Assembly (NCBI GenBank): GCA_046595695.1
Contig: JBKJOI010000221.1
Coordinates: 1 to 20,654, forward strand
Source: Haliangiales bacterium
GTDB taxonomy: Bacteria > Myxococcota_A > Polyangia > Haliangiales > SHYZ01
Length of the DNA: 20,654 nt
Reading direction: 5' to 3'
The position numbers and the translations under genes were made by a program. Each line of letters opens with the position of its first letter. Position 1 is the first letter of the stretch. Below the pieces are notes generated by a model. It ran no database searches and was not told the DNA's origin. It saw nothing but the letters and a program-made list of their open reading frames with translations. Of the stretch, positions 2,675 to 10,394 are shown piece after piece.

Positions 2675-5600
2675 ATGTGGAAGACGAGAATCTTTGCCGC
2701 ATTCTTGCTGGTAGCCCCGACGATGGTCGGGGTCGCCCGCGCCCAGCAACCCGCTCCCGTTCCGGAGCAGCCACCACCGACACGAATCGTCACGGGTCTG
2801 GTCGAGGACTCGAGTAGTCGCGCGCCCCTCGCGGGCGCCGTGATCAAGCTCAAGGGCACCACGATCGAGACGACCACCGACCAGGATGGGTTCTTCGTTC
2901 TGAGCGGTCTGCCCACGGGCGATCTGATCTTCGAGGTGGCCGCGGCGGATCATGACCCGACCGACGTCGTGATGGCCTTCGGCCACGGCTCGCTGCGCGT
3001 GGCGCTCGTCGCCACCGGCGGCGCGGTCGCGCCGCCCACCCCGTCGCCGCCGCCCGCCGCCGCCACGCGTCGCGTGTCGGGCATCGTCACCCAGAAGGGC
3101 AGTGGCGATCCGGTGATCGGCGCGATGGTGCAGGTCAAGGGCACCACGTTCGGCGCGCTGACCGAGGCCGATGGCACCTTCGTCATCGACGGGCTGCCGA
3201 TCGAGGACCTCGTGCTCGAGGTCAGCGAGGTCGAGCACGACACGCGCATCATCAAGGTCGGCGCGGCCCAGAACGAGGTCGACGTCGTCCTCTCCATGGT
3301 CGTCGGCGAGGTCATCGTCATCGAGCAGCGCGCCCCGCGCATCACCCGGCAGAACATCGCCAACGGCGCCTCGGTCGTGCGCGGCGACGAGCTGTCGCGC
3401 GTCTCCTCCGACACCGTCGACGACGCCATGCAGGGCAAGGTCGCCGGCGCCAACATCCAGGCCAACTCCGGCGCGCCCGGCGGCGGCGTGCAGGTGCGCC
3501 TGCGCGGCGTCTCGACCATCAACGGTCAGTCCTCGCCGCTCTACGTCGTCGACGGCGTGGTCATCAGCAACGTGGCCATCCCGTCCGGCATCTCGGCGGT
3601 CACCGGGTCCTCGGCCGGCTCGAACGCGTCGAGCACGCAGGACAATCAGGTCAACCGCATCGCCGATATCGACGTCAACGACATCGAGACCATCGAGATC
3701 CTGAAGGGCGCCTCGGCGGCTGCCCTCTACGGCTCGAAGGCCGCGAACGGCGTCGTCATCATCACGACCAAGCGCGGCCGCGGTAACAAGTTCCGCGCCA
3801 GCGTGACGCAGCGCTTCGGCTTCGCGCAGCGCTCGAACCGGCTCGGCGCGCGCAAGTTCAACACCGTCGACGAGGCGGTCGAGGCCTTCGGCCCGGGCGC
3901 CGCCGATCACTTCGTGCCCGGGCGCGTCTTCGACCACGAGGCGGAGCTGACCGGGGAGACGAACTTCGGCTCCGAGACGGCCGCGACCATCTCGGGCGGC
4001 GGGAACTCGTCCAACTACATTGCCTCGCTGCTCATCAAGGACGAGCCCGGGATCATCATCGGCACCGGCTACGAGAAGCAGTCGTTCCGGCTCGGCGTCG
4101 CGCGCGACTTCGGCAACCGCTTCAAGCTGACCCTGTCGGGCAACTTCATCCACGCCGACACGGCGCGTGGCATGACCAACAACGACAACGCCGGTGTCTC
4201 GCACTACATGGTCTTCCCGTTCACGCCCAGCTTCCTCGACCTGCGCCCCAACGCCGACGGCACCTACCCGTCGAATCCCTTCGTCGGCGCCGGCACCAAC
4301 CCGCTGCAGACCGTCGCGCTCATGAGCGACAGCGAGGAGGTCTGGCGCTTCCTCGGCTCCGCCGCCGGCAGCCTGCGCATCTTCACCAGCGAGAACCACG
4401 ACGTGAACCTGGTCTCGAACCTGGGCATCGACCGCTTCCAGCAGCACAACAGCCTGCTCTTCCCGCCCGAGCTCTTCTTCGAGCCGGCCGACGGGTTGCC
4501 CGGGACCTCGCTGTCCGCGAACGGCGACAGCTTGAACGTGAACGCCGGGACCAGCGTCTTCTACGCGTTCACGCCCACGTCCAAGAAGTGGCGCAGCGCC
4601 AGCGCCCTCGGCTTCCTGTACGAGTCGCGTGATCTCGACACCGTCTACGTGACCAGCCGCAGCCTGAACGCCGGGCAGTCGAACCTCGACGCCGGCAGCA
4701 ACATCGACGTCTCCCAGCTCCGCCAGCGCGTCCAGGATCGCGGCGCCTTCCTCCAGGAAGAGGTGCTGCTGCTCGACGAGAGCCTGTCGGTCCTCGTCGC
4801 CATCCTCGCCGAGCAGTCGAGCGTCAACGGCGATCCGTCGAAGCTCTACTTCTACCCGAAGGTCGCCTCCACCTACCGGATCCCGGGGCTCGAGGCGAAC
4901 TTCGACCTGCTGCGCGTGCGCTTCGCCTACGGCGAGGCGGGCAACCAGCCGCTCTACGGTCAGAAGTTCACCCCGCTCGTGGCCACCGACAACATCGAGG
5001 GCAACGCCGGCATCCGCAACGGCGGCGTCGCCGGCGATCCGAACATCGAGCCCGAGCGGCAGCGTGAGTTCGAGGCCGGCGTCGACGCCGTCGCCTGGGA
5101 GGGCCGCGTCGTCGTCGAGCTCACCGGCTACCAGCGCAACGTGACCAACCTGCTGCTGCAGCGGACCCTGGCGCCGTCGACCGGGTTCACGACCCAGTTC
5201 TTCAACGGTGGCGAGCTGCGCAACCGTGGCATCGAGCTCATGCTCCAGGTCGAGCCGGTCAAGACCAGCAACTTCCTGTGGACCTCGCGCGCGGTCTTCT
5301 CGCTGAACCGCAGCCGGATCGTCGATCTGCCCGTGCCCGCCTTCCTGACCGGCGGCTTCGGCACCGGCCTGGGCGCCTTCCGCATCGAGGAGGGCGCGTC
5401 GGCCACGCAGATCGTCGGTAACGACGGGCTCAAGGCCGACGGCACCTGCTGCGAGGTGCGCGTGGTCGGCGACACCGAGCCGACCTTCCGCGTCTCGTTC
5501 GTGAACAACTTCACCATCGGCGACTTCGGCGTGACGTCACTGTGGGACTGGCAGCAGGGCTCGGAGGTCATCAACCTCACGCGCTTCCTGTACGACCTCG

Positions 5601-5932
5601 GGCAGAACACCCCCGACTTCGCGACCGCGGGCGCGCAGCGCCTGATGGACCAGGAGACCTCCGCGGGCGTCTACGTCGAGGACGCGACCTTCTTCAAGCT
5701 CCGCGAGGTCTCGGTCTCCTACGCGCTCCCCGAGAGCTTCATCAGCGAGCTCGGCCCGCTGACCGGCGGCACCATCAGCCTGAGCGGCCGAAATCTACTG
5801 ACCATCAGCAACTACTCCGGGCTCGACCCCGAGGTCTCCAACTTCGGCAACCAGCCCATCGCGCGCAACATCGACGTGGCGCCCTATCCGCCCAGCCGGA
5901 GCTTCTGGCTCTCGCTGACGGCGGCCTTCTAG
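2675..5932 (+). CDS. SusC/RagA-family TonB-dependent outer-membrane transporter (TonB-linked outer membrane protein).
   Basis: 1085 aa. Signal peptide MWKTRIFAAFLLVAPTMVGVARA. Two tandem CarboxypepD_reg-like beta-sandwich modules (VTGLVEDSSSRAPLAGAVIKLKGTTIETTTDQDGFFVLSGLP and VSGIVTQKGSGDPVIGAMVQVKGTTFGALTEADGTFVIDGLP). A plug with SusC-type signature NIQANSGAPGGGVQVRLRGVSTINGQSSPLYVVDGV...DIETIEILKGASAAALYGSKAANGVVIITTKRG. A long barrel ending in the aromatic C-terminus ...LSLTAAF. The stop TAG at 5930-5932 overlaps the RBS of the next gene. Confidence 0.9.
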   Translation: MWKTRIFAAFLLVAPTMVGVARAQQPAPVPEQPPPTRIVTGLVEDSSSRAPLAGAVIKLKGTTIETTTDQDGFFVLSGLPTGDLIFEVAAADHDPTDVVMAFGHGSLRVALVATGGAVAPPTPSPPPAAATRRVSGIVTQKGSGDPVIGAMVQVKGTTFGALTEADGTFVIDGLPIEDLVLEVSEVEHDTRIIKVGAAQNEVDVVLSMVVGEVIVIEQRAPRITRQNIANGASVVRGDELSRVSSDTVDDAMQGKVAGANIQANSGAPGGGVQVRLRGVSTINGQSSPLYVVDGVVISNVAIPSGISAVTGSSAGSNASSTQDNQVNRIADIDVNDIETIEILKGASAAALYGSKAANGVVIITTKRGRGNKFRASVTQRFGFAQRSNRLGARKFNTVDEAVEAFGPGAADHFVPGRVFDHEAELTGETNFGSETAATISGGGNSSNYIASLLIKDEPGIIIGTGYEKQSFRLGVARDFGNRFKLTLSGNFIHADTARGMTNNDNAGVSHYMVFPFTPSFLDLRPNADGTYPSNPFVGAGTNPLQTVALMSDSEEVWRFLGSAAGSLRIFTSENHDVNLVSNLGIDRFQQHNSLLFPPELFFEPADGLPGTSLSANGDSLNVNAGTSVFYAFTPTSKKWRSASALGFLYESRDLDTVYVTSRSLNAGQSNLDAGSNIDVSQLRQRVQDRGAFLQEEVLLLDESLSVLVAILAEQSSVNGDPSKLYFYPKVASTYRIPGLEANFDLLRVRFAYGEAGNQPLYGQKFTPLVATDNIEGNAGIRNGGVAGDPNIEPERQREFEAGVDAVAWEGRVVVELTGYQRNVTNLLLQRTLAPSTGFTTQFFNGGELRNRGIELMLQVEPVKTSNFLWTSRAVFSLNRSRIVDLPVPAFLTGGFGTGLGAFRIEEGASATQIVGNDGLKADGTCCEVRVVGDTEPTFRVSFVNNFTIGDFGVTSLWDWQQGSEVINLTRFLYDLGQNTPDFATAGAQRLMDQETSAGVYVEDATFFKLREVSVSYALPESFISELGPLTGGTISLSGRNLLTISNYSGLDPEVSNFGNQPIARNIDVAPYPPSRSFWLSLTAAF

Positions 5933-5944
5933 GAGATGACGACC

Positions 5945-7279
5945 ATGATGAAGATCATGCTCAGGACCTTCGCGACGCTCGCGCTCGTGGCCTCGACCGC
6001 GGCCTGCGACCTCGACGTGCCGGATCTCAACAACCCTGGCCTCGACGACCTGTCGGAGAACCCGACCCGCTCGAAGGTGCTGGCGGCGGCCACCGGGCTG
6101 CTCATCGGCAACCGCATCGGCTACTCGGCGGCCAACGGCTACGTCTCGCACCTCGGTATCATCGGCCGCGAGTCGTACAACTTCGACGCGGCCGACCCGC
6201 GCTACATCACCGAGCTGCTCGCCTCCGCTCAGCTCGACCCGGGCAGTGGCGCCTTCGGCGGGAACTTCTGGAACGCGCCGTACGCCAACATCCGCAGCGG
6301 CCACACGCTGCTGCACGCGCTCGACGTGGTGCTCGGGATGACCGACGCCGAGAAGGAGGCCACGCGCGGGTTCGCCAAGACGATCCAGGCGCTCGACTTC
6401 CTGATCGTCCTCAACACCCGTGACGTGAACGGCGCTCCCATCGACGTCGATCGCCCGATCGAGGAGCTGGCGCCGATCGCCACCAAGGCCGAGGTGCAGG
6501 CGCACATCCTCCTCTTGCTCGACGAGGCCAAGGCTCACCTCGCGGCGGGCGGCGACGTCTTCCCCTTCAAGCTGTCGAGCGGGTTCGCCGGCTTCGACAC
6601 GCCGGCCACGTTCCTGAAGTTCAACCGCGCGATCAAGGCGCGGGTCGACATCTACGCCGGGAACTTCGACGCCGCTCTGGTCGATCTGACCGAGTCGTTC
6701 ATCTCCTCGGATCCGCTCGACCCCAAGCTGAACGTCGGCGTCTACTACTCCTACGGCACCGGCTCGGGCGACGTGCGCAACGGCCTCATCGATCCCAACC
6801 TCTTCGCGCACCCGTCGATCGTCACCGACGCGGATCTCAAGGTCAACGGCGACATCGACGATCGCGTCACCCGCAAGATCGTCACCGTCGAGTCGCGCAC
6901 CGTCCAGGGGCTGACCTCGGACAAGGGCTTCACGATGTACCAGGAGACCAGCGCGCCCACGCCGCTCATCCGCAACGAGGAGCTGATCCTGCTGCGCGCC
7001 GAGGCGAACATCGGGCTCGGCAACCTTGCCGTGGCGGCCGACGACATCAACTTCGTGCGCGTGAGCTCGGGCGGCCTCGCGCCGCGCCTCGACCTCGTCG
7101 CGGGCAACATCCTCGCGGAGCTGCTCAAGCAGAAGCGATACTCGCTCCTCTTCGAGGGCGGTCATCGCTGGATCGATCTACGGCGCTACGACCTGCTCGA
7201 CACCCTGCCGATCGACGTGGCGGGGCATGTCGTGCACCGGGCCTTCCCGCTGCCGATCTCCGAGACCGATCCCCGCTAA
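5945..7279 (+). CDS. SusD/RagB-family outer-membrane lipoprotein (nutrient-binding partner of SusC).
   Basis: Track ORF starts at 5936, but AGGAG sits at 5931-5935. ATG 5945 (MMKIMLRT..) therefore has the better 9-nt spacing. Lipoprotein signal MKIMLRTFATLALVASTAAC (lipobox TAAC). C-terminal SusD hallmarks: NEELILLRAEANIGLGN and KQKRYSLLFEGGHRWIDLRRYD (the RxxxxxEGxRWxDLxR motif). Coupled 3-13 nt downstream of susC-like. Confidence 0.85.
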   Translation: MMKIMLRTFATLALVASTAACDLDVPDLNNPGLDDLSENPTRSKVLAAATGLLIGNRIGYSAANGYVSHLGIIGRESYNFDAADPRYITELLASAQLDPGSGAFGGNFWNAPYANIRSGHTLLHALDVVLGMTDAEKEATRGFAKTIQALDFLIVLNTRDVNGAPIDVDRPIEELAPIATKAEVQAHILLLLDEAKAHLAAGGDVFPFKLSSGFAGFDTPATFLKFNRAIKARVDIYAGNFDAALVDLTESFISSDPLDPKLNVGVYYSYGTGSGDVRNGLIDPNLFAHPSIVTDADLKVNGDIDDRVTRKIVTVESRTVQGLTSDKGFTMYQETSAPTPLIRNEELILLRAEANIGLGNLAVAADDINFVRVSSGGLAPRLDLVAGNILAELLKQKRYSLLFEGGHRWIDLRRYDLLDTLPIDVAGHVVHRAFPLPISETDPR

Positions 7280-7297
7280 AGGCGGCGAAGCCGAAAC

Positions 7298-7367
7298 TCT
7301 CGCGACCGTCTACTGCCGGCCCGGCAGTGCCCCTCGCGACCGCCTACTGCCGGCCCCGCAGTACGCG
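7298..7367. repeat. Two tandem ~34-bp direct repeats (CTCGCGACCG[T/C]CTACTGCCGGCCC[G/C]GCAGT[G/A]C). Each contains an inverted repeat CTGCCGG-c-CCGGCAG.
   Basis: Read directly at 7300-7367, 20 nt after the susD-like stop (TAA 7277-7279). Could act as a GC-rich terminator pair or a protein-binding palindrome. No U-tract follows. Confidence 0.6.
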
Positions 7368-7658
7368 CCGGTTCCGTTCACCGAGCGCACTGCGTCGCGC
7401 CCCGCGCCACCGTCATGGTGCGTGCCCCATGCGGACCATCAGCCTCTGCCTCTGCTCCCCCGTACCCAAGCCAGGACCCGGGACGCGGCCCCGGAGCGCA
7501 TCGGAGGCACCACCCGCCCCGCCCCCTCAACAGCCAGCTGCAGGCGCGCAACGAAGCCAACCACCGGCGCTCAACCATGCGCCGACCGTCGCCAGAGCGC
7601 CGACCCGCTCCACGTCCCGCCAACGATCCGTCGGCGACCGCACGACCGGCCGGTCCGA

Positions 7659-8058: not shown

Positions 8059-8181
8059 TCATGTCCCCTGGCCGTGCTCCCAGAAGAACACCCCGTGGCC
8101 GGTGGGGTCCCTCACGATGAGCTCGGTCGTCCCGTAGAAGTGCGCGTGGGGGTAGGTCTCGAACGATGACCGGTGGAGCAC
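8059..8181 (-). pseudogene. C-terminal remnant (~38 codons) of a VOC/glyoxalase-bleomycin-resistance family gene.
   Basis: Minus-strand translation VLHRSSFETYPHAHFYGTTELIVRDPTGHGVFFWEHGQGT* ends in the typical VOC C-terminal beta-strand motif (..RDPdGhxxEf..E). Only 93 nt separate it from the stop of the upstream cytochrome gene, so the ~85 N-terminal residues of a VOC domain cannot be encoded. Confidence 0.35.
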
Positions 8182-8220
8182 GACGCTGGGGGGGAAGGCG
8201 AATCGAGGCGAGCGGAGAGA

Positions 8221-8259
8221 AGCATGCGGCGCGGCGGCAGCGCGAAGGCGGCCGCCGCG
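8221..8259 (-). terminator. Candidate GC-rich stem-loop terminator downstream of the di-heme cytochrome gene.
   Basis: Imperfect 13-bp inverted repeat GCGGCGCGGCGGC ... GCCGCCGCGCGGC (contains palindromes GGCGGCCGCC and CCGCGCGG). It begins ~15 nt past the stop (8274-8276) on the transcribed strand and is followed on that strand by AUGCUUCUCUCC (pyrimidine/U-enriched). Confidence 0.3.
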
Positions 8260-8273
8260 CGGCAGCGGCGCTG

Positions 8274-9971
8274 CTACAGGGTCTTCAGGTACTCGAGCAG
8301 GTCCTTCAGCTTGCCGGTCTCGTTCTTCCAGTCGACGTTGCCGTTGAACTGCGCCGAGTAGTGGCCGGTGTTCGAGCTGCCCGAGAGCCGGGTGTCGAAG
8401 ATCGCTGCGCTCGTGCCGGCGGCGCGATCCCACGTGAAGCCGACCTGCTTCTGATCGAAGGTCAGGTTGCCACGGTAGAACGTGACCGGGCGGATACCGG
8501 TGAGCAGCGCGTGCAGCGTCGGGACCGAGCCGTTGTGCAGGTAGGGCGCGCGCGCCCAGATGCCATCGAGCGGCACGGCGCCGTAGCCGTAGGTCGGGTT
8601 CACGATCTCCGAGTCGGGGAGCGGCAGGCCGTCGGCGCCGTTGCAGACGGTCGCATCGGGGCAGGTCAGGCGCAGCACCCTGGTGAGGGCGCCGATGGTG
8701 AAGGGCGTCCACAGGATGGCGCGGTTGGCATCGGTGCCGACGATCTCGGGCGCGAAGTGGTTGCTGTTGCCGGGCGCGTGGCACGAGGCGCAGTTGGCGT
8801 CGTAGAGCACCTTGCCGCGCGCGGCGGACTTGTTGTCGACGTCGAACGGGTAGGGCGTGGCGGGCAGGTTCGCCGTGAAGCGCGTGGTGCGCACCGCGTT
8901 GTCGAGGCTGACGGCGGCCGGGTTCTTGACCACGCCGAACTCGGCGGCGAGGTTACGGTGCAGCGGGCTGCCGATGCTGCCGTCCCACTGAGCGACCGGG
9001 CGATCGTTCTGGCGCCACACGCTCATGATGTCGATCTCGGCGGGCGCGGGGGGCAGGATGGCCGCCAGCTGCGCGGGCGTGAAGTTCGCGGGGTTCACGA
9101 TGATCGCGATGCCGGCGCCGATGGCGTCGAGGTAGCCGGGCTTGGGCGTCGACAGGCTGGGCGCGTTGGGCACGTTGTACGTGTACGCGCCGAGGGTGGC
9201 CGCGGTGCGCGCGGCGCCACCGTTCACGGCCGCCTTGAAGTTGCCCATCATCGTCTCGGCGACGCCAGGTGAGAGGAAGATGGCGCGTTCCATCTGCTCC
9301 TGGAAGGCCATCGTGGGATCATCGCCAAAGATGAAGTTCGCCGGCTTGGCCAGCAGGGCGGCGCGGAAGATGTCCGCGGTGTACTTCGGCGAGTTCACGG
9401 TGGCGAACACGGCGCCGCCGAACTGGCTGAAGGTGGTGTTCGGGCCACCGATGATCGGCAGCATGATGCCGCCCGGGCCGACGACGCGACCGCTGTGGCA
9501 GCCCGCGCAGGTCAGCTGCACGACCTGGACGTTGACCGGGCCCGCGGGCGTCTGGACCGCCGGCACCGAGCCGGTGAAGCCCACGCCGAGCGGCAGCACG
9601 CGGTTCGGCTCGAGGATGTCGCGCGACAGGCCGACCGGCGCGAAGTAGTCGGTGGGCGCGCCCCAGATCTCCGGCATGACCTCGGGGAACAGCCGGAACA
9701 TGACCATCGGGATGCCGGAGTTACCCAGCGCGCCGTTCTTGAAGGCCTTGAAGTCAGCCTCGTTCGCCTGGATGTAGTTGACCAGCGCCAGCGCGCGCCT
9801 GGCCCGTTCGGTGTTCCAGTCGGAGGTCGAGCTCGCGTTGGACTGGACCGTGCCCTCCTCCTCGGGCTCGTTGCCCACATCGCCGACGCCGCAGGCTGAC
9901 GTCCCGAGTGCGCAAGCCACGAGTACGCCGCGAAGAAGAGTTCCTAGTTCCAATCCGACATTTGCCTTCAT
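8274..9971 (-). CDS. Di-heme c-type cytochrome lipoprotein of the bacterial cytochrome-c-peroxidase/MauG/RoxA superfamily (565 aa). Larger than canonical CCP and possibly a RoxA-like oxygenase.
   Basis: Track ORF is 8274..10016. ATG at 9971 (MKANVGLELGTLLRGVLVAC..) is preceded by AAGGAG 7 nt upstream. Lipobox LVAC at Cys20. Two CxxCH haem motifs, CAGCH (aa 155-159) and CASCH (aa 394-398). C-terminal-domain APYLHNGSVPTL matches the conserved CCP/MauG PYFHDGS segment. The size and the CASCH position (~aa 394) recall rubber oxygenase RoxA (CSACH/CASCH), recalled from literature and not searched. Confidence 0.8.
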   Translation of the reverse strand: MKANVGLELGTLLRGVLVACALGTSACGVGDVGNEPEEEGTVQSNASSTSDWNTERARRALALVNYIQANEADFKAFKNGALGNSGIPMVMFRLFPEVMPEIWGAPTDYFAPVGLSRDILEPNRVLPLGVGFTGSVPAVQTPAGPVNVQVVQLTCAGCHSGRVVGPGGIMLPIIGGPNTTFSQFGGAVFATVNSPKYTADIFRAALLAKPANFIFGDDPTMAFQEQMERAIFLSPGVAETMMGNFKAAVNGGAARTAATLGAYTYNVPNAPSLSTPKPGYLDAIGAGIAIIVNPANFTPAQLAAILPPAPAEIDIMSVWRQNDRPVAQWDGSIGSPLHRNLAAEFGVVKNPAAVSLDNAVRTTRFTANLPATPYPFDVDNKSAARGKVLYDANCASCHAPGNSNHFAPEIVGTDANRAILWTPFTIGALTRVLRLTCPDATVCNGADGLPLPDSEIVNPTYGYGAVPLDGIWARAPYLHNGSVPTLHALLTGIRPVTFYRGNLTFDQKQVGFTWDRAAGTSAAIFDTRLSGSSNTGHYSAQFNGNVDWKNETGKLKDLLEYLKTL

Positions 9972-10019
9972 GTACGGCTCCTTACAGGGGGTAGTGCTTC
10001 TGCCCTGGAATTTCACCGT

Positions 10020-10240
10020 GCAGCTGGATGCAGACGATCGTCAATTTGTAAGCAATGTAAGCGAACTTGGCTTTCTAACTGTCAATGCTATGACATGGTA
10101 ACTGCTAGAGATTATGGCAGGGTGACAAGAATGCGTATTTCGACATACATTTAGAATTCGACATGGCCCCGTCGGCGCAAAGTAGGCGACTGGATGCAGC
10201 GCTCCTACTTTGCCGCAGGAAAGCTCATGTTTTCGCGTGG
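10020..10240. promoter_or_regulatory. Anomalously low-GC (~45%) upstream/promoter region of the di-heme cytochrome gene. Contains TTGACA-like hexamers on the minus strand and the short direct repeat TGTAAGC x2.
   Basis: Composition read directly (e.g. caatttgtaagcaatgtaagcgaacttggctttctaactgtcaatgctatgacatggtaactgctagagattatgg). Contrasts with ~70% GC elsewhere. Confidence 0.45.
10177..10213. promoter_or_regulatory. Perfect 10-bp inverted repeat GCAAAGTAGG-N17-CCTACTTTGC (candidate operator or RNA stem).
   Basis: Read directly at 10177-10186 and 10204-10213. ~210-240 bp upstream of the cytochrome start. Lies inside the Crp-like gene fragment. Confidence 0.5.
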
Positions 10241-10346
10241 AGGCTAGGTTCACCCAGCCGCGCCGCTCCCACGCCTTCAAGATCTTGCTGATGCTCTGCC
10301 GCGAGGTCGCCAGGAGGCGCGCCAGCTCGCCTTGCGAGAAGGCCAA
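10239..10346 (-). pseudogene. Remnant of a Crp/Fnr-family transcription factor: only the C-terminal helix-turn-helix (~35 codons) is retained.
   Basis: Minus-strand ORF 10041..10346 begins MAFSQGELARLLATSRQSISKILKAWERRGWVNL, a canonical Crp/Fnr HTH (..ELAxLLGxSRxxxSRxLKxLExxGxI..). It then runs into low-GC non-protein-like sequence. There is no room for the ~150-aa cNMP-binding domain upstream, since the next gene stops at 10395. Confidence 0.4.
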
Positions 10347-10394
10347 TCCGGGTGCCGACGGACCATCATCCGGAGTGCCGAGTAGATGACGCTG

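Follow-up and report, generated by a model that had tools for sequence, protein, structure and literature searches.

The stretch of DNA analysed here, a contig of 20,654 nucleotides from a Haliangiales bacterium (JBKJOI010000221.1; the whole stretch is called the window), carries on its minus strand a gene for a lipid-anchored c-type cytochrome with two haems. We show that the product, a protein of 565 amino acids (aa), belongs as an ordinary-looking member to a large myxobacterial family of RoxA-like cytochrome lipoproteins with two haems, and that its gene lies between an intact DTW tRNA-modification gene and a gene for a 112-aa protein, with a truncated gene stump on each side. The minus-strand open reading frame (ORF) extends over 8274-10016 and includes a conserved ATG at 9971, from which the 565-aa product is counted. 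An initial annotation had described a 565-aa lipoprotein with CAGCH, CASCH and PYxHxGS motifs, and exact computation on the product confirms all of these, placing CAGCH at residue 155, CASCH at 394 and PYLHNGS at 476. The features of the gene are listed here, and conservation counts are taken throughout from an alignment of 58 homologues.

8274-9971, minus strand: coding sequence (CDS) of the 565-aa di-haem c-type cytochrome lipoprotein, RoxA-like branch within the cytochrome c peroxidase (CCP)/MauG superfamily
9891-9971, minus strand: signal peptide and lipobox up to Cys27 (TSAC), predicted from the sequence and the aligned Cys column
9495-9509, minus strand: haem-1 motif C155-A-G-C158-H159, the presumed catalytic haem, invariant in 58/58 homologues and aligned with RoxA CSACH195
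8985-8987, minus strand: inter-haem Trp329 in QWDGS, invariant and aligned with RoxA W302 in FWDGS
8778-8792, minus strand: haem-2 motif C394-A-S-C397-H398, from the sequence and the 58-homologue alignment; CASCH also occurs in RoxA and RoxB (PMC6311187)
8526-8546, minus strand: MauG motif P476-Y-L-H479-N-G-S, from the sequence and the alignment, aligned with RoxA PYFH517NGS
8361-8363, minus strand: His537 (SNTGH), putative sixth ligand of haem 2, invariant in 58/58 homologues and profile-aligned to RoxA GNDNGGH641

Both CxxCH motifs are kept in 57-58 of the 58 homologues, and the MauG-type Trp between the haems, which the earlier work had proposed to look for, is present as Trp329 and does not vary across the alignment. 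The motif at 476 reads PYLHNGSVP in full, and His398 and His537, which align with the haem-2 ligands of RoxA, are both invariant. At the N-terminus, Cys27 is preceded by a hydrophobic stretch and the aligned column holds Cys in 52 of the 58 sequences; therefore, the lipoprotein call holds for the clade of the window protein, the most distant family members having a plain signal peptide in place of the lipobox. Residues 1-47 are disordered in the AlphaFold2 model (predicted local distance difference test, pLDDT, below 50).

Membership of the RoxA/CCP superfamily, as originally proposed, is borne out by domain models, structure and profile alignment alike. The protein matches Pfam PF21419 (RoxA-like_Cyt-c) over residues 462-493 with 58.2 bits against a cut-off of 26.7; its other Pfam matches are to generic cytochrome c models only, and PF03150 (CCP_MauG) gives no match at E values up to 1. 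The best NCBIfam model is NF040606, 'di-heme-cytochrome C peroxidase', at 145.8 bits (E 2.5e-42), just under its cut-off of 150, and the window clade is therefore at the edge of this model, which has 524 positions and is matched by all 58 aligned clade members (best E 1.6e-52). The name of NF040606 is an annotation and not a tested activity. The NCBIfam models for RoxA, RoxB and RoxC (NF050033, NF050034 and NF051462) match only locally and below their cut-offs, with 31.2 against 1000, 33.4 against 900 and 47 against 900 bits, respectively.

A search of 5.8 billion proteins returned 1,539 matches among 8,000 candidates scored. Most of the 120 homologues listed are 550-570 aa long with 90-100% query coverage, the closest among the matches listed being P0002 (NCBI; 74% identical), and the few that bear names come from metagenome-assembled genomes (MAGs) of Polyangiales, Polyangiaceae or Kofleriaceae. 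One Kofleriaceae MAG, JBKJLC01, encodes two paralogues (loci L004 and L005) on different contigs, both 59-60% identical to the window protein. Apart from this MAG, a scan of a genome collection gave one spurious hit only. The suggestion that this is an extended form, far larger than the canonical peroxidases of about 330 aa, holds up well: since the homologues are full-length at 550-570 aa and RoxA could be aligned over 374 residues, we rejected the possibility of an ordinary 330-aa CCP with an unrelated N-terminal extension.

The AlphaFold2 model built on the 58 homologues (pLDDT 88.9, predicted template-modelling score 0.87) has a two-domain, cytochrome-c-like structural core that resembles solved CCP and MauG structures. 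In a Foldseek comparison with the PDB, RoxA (4b2n) was found at E 5e-9 and no other structure reached E 0.001, with a clear drop after RoxA to the gamma subunit of hydrazine synthase (12.7), CCP (12.1), MauG (11.8), YhjA (11.7), MbnH (11.3) and BthA (10.1). The family profile is colinear with RoxA at the first CxxCH motif, W302, H312, H517, H641 and a C-terminal 'EYxKTL' (LLEYLKTL in the window protein, aligned with LIEYIKTL in RoxA), and the equivalents of these RoxA residues vary little or not at all among family members. The correspondences, with the window protein named first, are the following.

First CxxCH motif (residues 155-159): RoxA CSACH195
QWDGS...LH (W329, H338): RoxA FWDGS...VH (W302, H312)
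PYLH479NGS: RoxA PYFH517NGS
SNTGH537: RoxA GNDNGGH641

In RoxA, the O2-binding haem has H195 as its proximal ligand, H394 and H641 ligate the second haem, and W302 acts as the bridge between them (PMC6311187, PMC4496055). Taken together, the window protein is truly related to the extended di-haem oxygenases and is not an orthologue of RoxA, RoxB or RoxC.

The protein has the signals for export through the Sec pathway and for a lipid anchor at Cys27, and attachment sites for two c-type haems. By homology with these enzymes, haem 1 (Cys155/Cys158/His159) would be the reactive haem, haem 2 (Cys394/Cys397/His398) would be a bis-His haem with His537 as its sixth ligand, and Trp329 would link the two. 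The protein probably works on its own, as an enzyme located in the envelope or at the cell surface, and would use O2 or a peroxide to oxidise a non-protein substrate that is probably lipid-like or isoprenoid-like. Our best guess, offered tentatively and at somewhat less than even odds, is an oxygenase or peroxygenase whose substrate is lipid-like or isoprenoid-like.

The gene neighbourhoods of more distant relatives give some hints in this direction. On plasmid pTT13-1 of Paracoccus yeei (NZ_CP024423.1; L097, 5333-11249), a 620-aa RoxA-like di-haem homologue, 32% identical and annotated as hypothetical, forms a tandem with a catalase-family protein (313 aa) and an An_peroxidase protein (548 aa), with a LuxR-type regulator divergent upstream, and the gene set looks like one for oxylipin chemistry. 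A comparable cyanobacterial gene pair makes and cleaves fatty-acid hydroperoxides. Among metagenome relatives (L009-L088; 25-38% identical), the gene lies beside a di-haem paralogue of about 960 aa in at least 17 loci, a 305-aa lipoprotein with no Pfam match in at least 13, an OYE flavin oxidoreductase in at least 12, GMC oxidoreductases in at least 9 and at least 8, and a cytochrome P450 in at least 5; some of these relatives have a long N-terminal membrane extension, as in L072 (1137 aa). The OYE, GMC, P450 and peroxidase neighbours hint at lipid oxygenation, as do the distances between the haem motifs and between the MauG-motif His and the distal His, which agree with those of the fatty-acid dioxygenases PA2077/PA2078 (PMC4496055).

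It is also conceivable that the protein is a plain periplasmic cytochrome c peroxidase that scavenges H2O2 and has acquired extra decoration, given that the nearest NCBIfam model carries the peroxidase name and that both the Trp of the WDG motif and the PYxHxGS motif are found in CCPs too. However, the absence of a CCP_MauG match, the roughly 200 extra residues that are conserved across the family, and a sixth ligand of haem 2 that, by alignment only, corresponds to His641 of RoxA and not to the Met of the high-potential CCP haem, all make this unlikely.

The surroundings of the gene point to a self-contained unit. Neighbouring genes differ in all eight distinct orthologue contexts (L001/L002, L003, L004, L007, L008, L089, L090 and L091/L092), where they include histidine kinases, an aminotransferase, an isochorismatase, a sigma-54 activator and DUF4215 proteins, and none of the eight holds a counterpart of the other genes in the window. 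A strong G+C-rich hairpin just after the stop codon was found in 8/8 orthologue loci examined, followed in several by a T run. The signals that frame the CDS in the window are these, with positions relative to the gene given where they help the comparison.

8225-8264, minus strand: G+C-rich hairpin 10 nt after the stop codon, terminator-like and without a clean T run; an inverted repeat with 17-nt arms, 88% complementary, and a 6-nt loop
9972-10213, minus strand: AT-rich 5' regulatory region, 48% G+C (GC), with boxes common to L001, L007, L008, L089 and L091
10039-10061, minus strand: tandem boxes CTTACATTG-CTTACAAATTGACG, running into TTGACG, at -90 to -68 and found in six orthologue loci
10015-10020, minus strand: conserved CACGGT, 18 nt after TTGACG, from the alignments (CAGGGT in L091)
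9978-9983, minus strand: Shine-Dalgarno (SD) sequence AAGGAG, 6 nt before the ATG, read from the sequence; it may pair with a conserved TTCC at 10007-10010

The initial annotation had called the gene 'low-GC-flanked', and exact computation supports this for one side only: the 220 bp upstream (9972-10191) have 48.2% GC against a window average of 69.5%, whereas the 92-bp downstream spacer (8182-8273) has 78%. GC content is thus far from uniform, and the lowest 200-bp stretch of the 20.6-kb window (45%) falls at 9961-10160. The same contrast is seen in orthologues, where the 200 bp upstream of the gene in L001, L007, L008 and L089 have 47.5-51.5% GC in contigs of 68-72%, with sequence boxes at fixed positions despite differing neighbours. 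The six closest loci stay in register for about 60 nt without insertions or deletions, from the tandem boxes through CACGGT; TTTCC is kept in most of them, and the SD sequence is shared as well. A blastn search from the window found this core in L089 at E 4e-5 and in L007 at E 1.4e-4. GTTAGAAAGCC is present in the window and L089 only, with a diverged form in L007. Between the two Kofleriaceae paralogues, L004 keeps a degenerate tandem box and L005 has none, and the module is lacking in the more distant orthologues L003 and L090. The upstream conservation described here rests on six distinct orthologue loci.

Searches for known regulatory elements in this region were negative. A consensus scan for sigma-70 promoters and terminators gave no match on the strand of the gene, sigma-54 (GG-N10-GC) and extracytoplasmic function (ECF) sigma spacings checked by eye against the aligned boxes did not fit, and Rfam matched nothing in the upstream region or in the whole window. 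A profile of the upstream box, run with nhmmer, found no further copy in about 0.8 Mb of recovered loci, so that nothing points to a regulon. On the simplest interpretation, the AT-rich stretch would be a promoter/operator region for some regulator, inherited with the gene, and its boxes are probably read by that regulator.

Alternatively, the conserved upstream sequence could serve chiefly as a structured 5' leader RNA instead of a promoter that binds protein; in this leader, a hairpin between UUUCC and the SD sequence would be a thermosensor or other translational switch. In five of six orthologue leaders, the U-rich/UUCC element and ACGGU can pair with the SD sequence and the CCGU that follows it, as judged from the minimum-energy fold or by hand inspection (for the window, by hand inspection only); the inner hairpin enclosed by this pairing is variable, and the stem sequence differs between orthologues. 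The fold z-scores, however, are weak and uneven (-3.6, -2.1, -1.2, -0.9, -0.65 and +0.45), the consensus structure reaches only -3.3 kcal/mol with 2 of 12 pairs covarying, no Rfam family matches, and the tandem boxes, where conservation is strongest, are situated upstream of the putative hairpin. We consider a leader RNA improbable, and prefer the promoter/operator reading.

Farther from the gene, the upstream region contains a perfect 10-bp inverted repeat (10177-10186 and 10204-10213, with 17 nt between the arms), as had been claimed.

10177-10186, minus strand: distal box CCTACTTTG(C), the gene-proximal arm of the palindrome, at -215; also found in L001 at -212 and in L008 at -208
10204-10213, plus strand: additional copy of the distal box in inverted orientation, forming the outer palindrome arm; present in the window only among the loci compared

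Since the inner arm is the conserved distal box, the palindrome amounts to that box plus one extra inverted copy 17 nt upstream. Exact matches to CYTACWTTG number three in the 20.6-kb window, all inside 10053-10212, and the background of the box motif in the other 102 kb of orthologue loci is 0.018 per 300 bp. The palindrome, together with a remnant of a Crp/Fnr-type gene nearby, had been interpreted as the vestige of a regulator-operator pair. Crp/Fnr sites are palindromes of the form 5-N4/6-5, and a 10-N17-10 palindrome is therefore not a site of this type; moreover, the distal box is found at about -210 in L001 and L008, which have no Crp neighbour. Both observations speak against the vestige.

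Taken as a whole, the window gene looks like a promoter-gene-terminator unit of about 2 kb that is complete in itself: an AT-rich 5' region of about 240 bp, with the distal box at -215 and the tandem boxes at -90 to -68, would lead into a strong ribosome-binding site, the CDS and finally the G+C-rich hairpin.

This unit is directly bordered by two pieces of coding sequence, and the claim that both are gene fragments proved sound.

10240-10345, minus strand: remnant of a Crp/Fnr-type regulator, helix-turn-helix (HTH) only, about 35 codons, truncated at both ends, from GC periodicity, Pfam and PDB
8059-8181, minus strand: forty-codon C-terminal coding remnant with its stop codon (earlier label VOC/glyoxalase), from GC periodicity

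Measured at the first, second and third codon positions (GC1/2/3), GC amounts to 0.60/0.45/0.95 in 8062-8181 and to 0.56/0.53/0.94 in 10239-10346. Across the real genes of the window, GC3 in sliding stretches of 120 nt averages 0.948, with a 5th percentile of 0.85, and the other codon positions rarely exceed 0.83. Coding periodicity starts abruptly at about 8190 and ends abruptly at about 10240 in a sliding scan, and the adjoining DNA has none (0.83/0.77/0.77 for 8182-8271 and 0.49/0.52/0.38 for 10044-10238). Given this GC3 signature and its sharp edges, both pieces are genuine remnants of coding sequence, fairly recent and sharply broken off.

The identity of the upstream piece as a Crp/Fnr HTH remnant, also proposed earlier, is supported by a Pfam HTH_Crp_2 match to 10240-10345 (30.9 bits against a cut-off of 27) and by PDB searches, in which all hits with E below 1 belong to the Crp/Fnr family and cover residues of about 163-208 out of about 225 (Crp/GlxR, E 0.005). 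The piece has neither the sensor domain nor the last 17 or so residues. Its coding signature covers no more than about 35 codons, the stop codon of DTW is 50 nt upstream and periodicity is lost below 10240; the piece is therefore a fragment and not a gene. The DTW gene itself is complete as far as its stop codon, just as the orthologues L093 and L095 are, and homology to its orthologues ends about there. Between this stop codon and the Crp remnant lie 48 nt (10347-10394) that are in the same reading frame as both and have GC periodicity in a different phase, whose translation faintly resembles the helix before the Crp HTH; this segment may be a frameshifted further piece of the remnant.

The VOC/glyoxalase identity given to the downstream piece, in contrast, found no support. 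Its motif YGxxELxVRDPxG recalls the C-termini of VOC proteins. For 8062-8181, there was no Pfam or NCBIfam match at E up to 1, no VOC protein among PDB hits at E up to 10, and no match in a phmmer search of 1.84 billion representative proteins; a word-index search with both stumps concatenated yielded no candidates. The only tblastn hit among plasmids (E = 2) was an unannotated Sinorhizobium stretch and not a VOC gene, and we regard it as spurious. All these searches have low power with a query of only 40 residues, and the VOC label therefore stands unproven and not disproved.

The two stumps bear on how the locus arose. Since the unit is wedged between them, at least one insertion or deletion event must have taken place, and since the Crp piece is truncated at both ends, there was more than one break. 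The insertion or rearrangement proposed at the outset therefore stands as far as some rearrangement is concerned, and finds no support as horizontal acquisition. The CDS has 68.4% GC and a GC3 of 0.935, within the range of neighbouring genes (0.86-0.97); the window contains no tRNA, no integrase or transposase domain in the ORFs scanned, and no flanking direct or inverted repeats beyond short matches at chance level. With a host-like composition and none of these elements, the marks of a classical island are absent. Neither does low GC mark an island here, as the AT-rich upstream region and its boxes are common to orthologues with different neighbours. We also followed synteny through the DTW gene, whose orthologues are 79-85% identical: in the two closest DTW contexts that could be read, nothing else is common with the window. 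A side observation concerns one of these relatives, L095 (90-1782, and the 24-kb JGI contig of P0122; DTW 79% identical), in which the DTW gene is followed after a 532-bp spacer by a 779-aa di-haem lipoprotein with CBM_56 and PF06537 (DHOR) domains, so that a different CCP-superfamily gene occupies the same slot as in the window; this is curious and a single observation.

Two accounts of the stumps compete with ours. In one, the stumps are the hitch-hiking ends of a donor sequence, and a piece of about 2.3 kb, comprising the truncated Crp gene, the cytochrome unit and the truncated C-terminal stump, was relocated by illegitimate recombination, whether within or between genomes of related myxobacteria. 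The two stumps share the strand of the cytochrome gene and directly abut the unit, the Crp stump has lost both ends, DTW homology stops at an intact DTW stop codon, and the host-like GC3 would fit a donor of similar composition. Against this, no Crp or VOC gene stands beside the cytochrome gene in the recovered orthologue loci, tblastn of both stumps against these loci found nothing, and no donor-like locus is known, so we give this account little credence.

The other account is the original one, in which a horizontally acquired island destroyed resident VOC and Crp genes and left the palindrome and the Crp stump as a regulator-operator vestige. It can draw on the two truncated remnants that directly abut the unit, on the lowest GC of the window upstream of the gene, on a neighbourhood of the gene that is different in every relative, and on the two closest DTW contexts, which are without the cytochrome gene beside DTW. 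The weight of the evidence is nevertheless on the other side: GC3 is within the resident range; tRNA and flanking repeats are lacking, as are integrases and transposases in the scanned ORFs; the low GC is confined to a 5' region whose boxes orthologues share; the inner palindrome arm is a conserved box that L001 and L008 carry with no Crp neighbour; a Crp stump cut at both ends is unexplained by a single insertion; and the VOC identity is unsupported. We judge an island of this kind quite unlikely.

A MauG/MbnH/BthA-type enzyme that oxidises a specific partner protein post-translationally is very unlikely, given that MauG, MbnH and BthA are encoded beside their partner proteins, which argues against such a role for a gene that has no conserved neighbour in any distinct context recovered and a terminator-like hairpin of its own.

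Our preferred reading combines these strands: an exported, lipid-anchored, RoxA-like di-haem enzyme would be encoded by a self-contained unit with a conserved 5' region, set between two gene stumps at a locus that was shaped by local insertion or deletion and not by recent import from a compositionally different donor. We assign this combined explanation a probability of roughly 0.55. Several points weigh against it. Substrate and chemistry are pure inference, as we know of no characterised member of the clade of the window protein. The Rox models score 31-47 bits against cut-offs of 900-1000. The equivalent of RoxA Phe317, an essential residue on the distal side of haem 1, is Ala343 by profile, or else Phe345 in an identical FGV tripeptide two residues on. 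The context hints come from relatives with 25-38% identity and not from the window clade, which has no conserved neighbours. Finally, the upstream conservation is known from six distinct orthologue loci only, and no recognisable sigma-70 or sigma-54 promoter can be placed in the conserved region.

It is tempting to go further and speculate that the myxobacterial clade represents a new class of surface-tethered RoxA/FadCcp-like oxygenases that act on lipids, oxylipins or isoprenoids of prey or the environment, with a regulator reading the CYTACA boxes and with the unit relocating as a block that takes scraps of neighbouring genes along. We regard this more ambitious proposal as doubtful.

Elsewhere in the window, a SusC-like TonB-dependent receptor (1085 aa; CarboxypepD_reg, Plug and barrel) is followed directly on the plus strand by a SusD/RagB-like lipoprotein (447 aa), the two together spanning 2675-7279. 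SusC/SusD pairs are usually associated with Bacteroidota, and this SusC/SusD-like pair sits on a myxobacterium-like contig of about 70% GC. The next 380 bp or so (7280-7658) have 72-75% GC, a strong skew of C over G (-0.23 to -0.27) and no frame with coding GC3; within them, a 34-bp unit is repeated twice at 7301-7367.

Nothing at the locus would surprise a specialist. Extended di-haem oxygenases are of interest for the biotransformation of rubber and lipids, and the family described here, of which over 1,500 members were detected, most of them in soil myxobacteria, preserves counterparts of those catalytic-core residues that were compared in a shorter, lipid-anchored scaffold; its substrate, once found, would broaden the chemistry known for this fold. 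The example also illustrates how, in a high-GC genome, a sharply AT-rich flank can turn out to be a regulatory module that is conserved and not the scar of an island, and how gene stumps that are very short and beyond the reach of homology searches can be confirmed by codon-position GC.

To our knowledge, the only characterised extended di-haem oxygenases are RoxA, RoxB and the oleate-diol synthases of Pseudomonas. The smaller enzymes of the superfamily (canonical CCPs, MauG, MbnH and BthA) have about 320-420 aa as opposed to 565 here, and haem 2, predicted to be His/His in the window protein, is His/Met in CCP and His/Tyr in MauG and BthA. MauG, MbnH and BthA each have an adjacent partner gene, whereas the window gene is without one.

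RoxA of Steroidobacter cummioxidans 35Y (4b2n) is alike in being a monomer-sized, extended di-haem protein exported by a signal peptide, with two CxxCH motifs, the second of which is also CASCH, and with the W302, H312, H517 and H641 counterparts described above (PMC6311187). The similarity, however, is only local. RoxA has about 678 aa, and the 565-aa precursor of the window falls outside its size class of about 70-75 kDa; RoxA is secreted, whereas the window protein is a predicted lipoprotein; and the window gene has no roxB partner and no context of rubber degradation. The haem motifs are 199 residues apart in RoxA and 239 here (PMC4496055; PMC6311187), and the MauG-motif His and the distal His are separated by about 124 residues in RoxA and by 58 here. 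RoxB/LatA has an identical MauG motif, PYLHNGSVP (PMC6311187), but differs in having Val at the position of the inter-haem Trp, which is invariant in the window family. RoxC gives the best local hidden Markov model match among the Rox models, its 47 bits being far under the cut-off of 900.

The FadCcp enzymes of Pseudomonas aeruginosa, PA2077 (10S-dioxygenase) and PA2078 (7,10-diol synthase), have some 100 residues more than the window protein in the stretch from haem 2 to the MauG motif (65-67 kDa) and are encoded as an adjacent pair, unlike the stand-alone gene described here. Their first haem motif is CAGCH, as in the window protein (PMC4496055), and PA2077 also has the inter-haem Trp (PMC4496055). 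By published spacings, the haem motifs are 245 (PA2077) and 235 (PA2078) residues apart, compared with 239 here (PMC4496055), and the MauG-motif His is separated from the distal His by 58 and 60 residues, respectively, compared with 58 here (PMC4496055). Both spacings of the window protein (239 and 58) match those of PA2077 and PA2078 and not those of RoxA.

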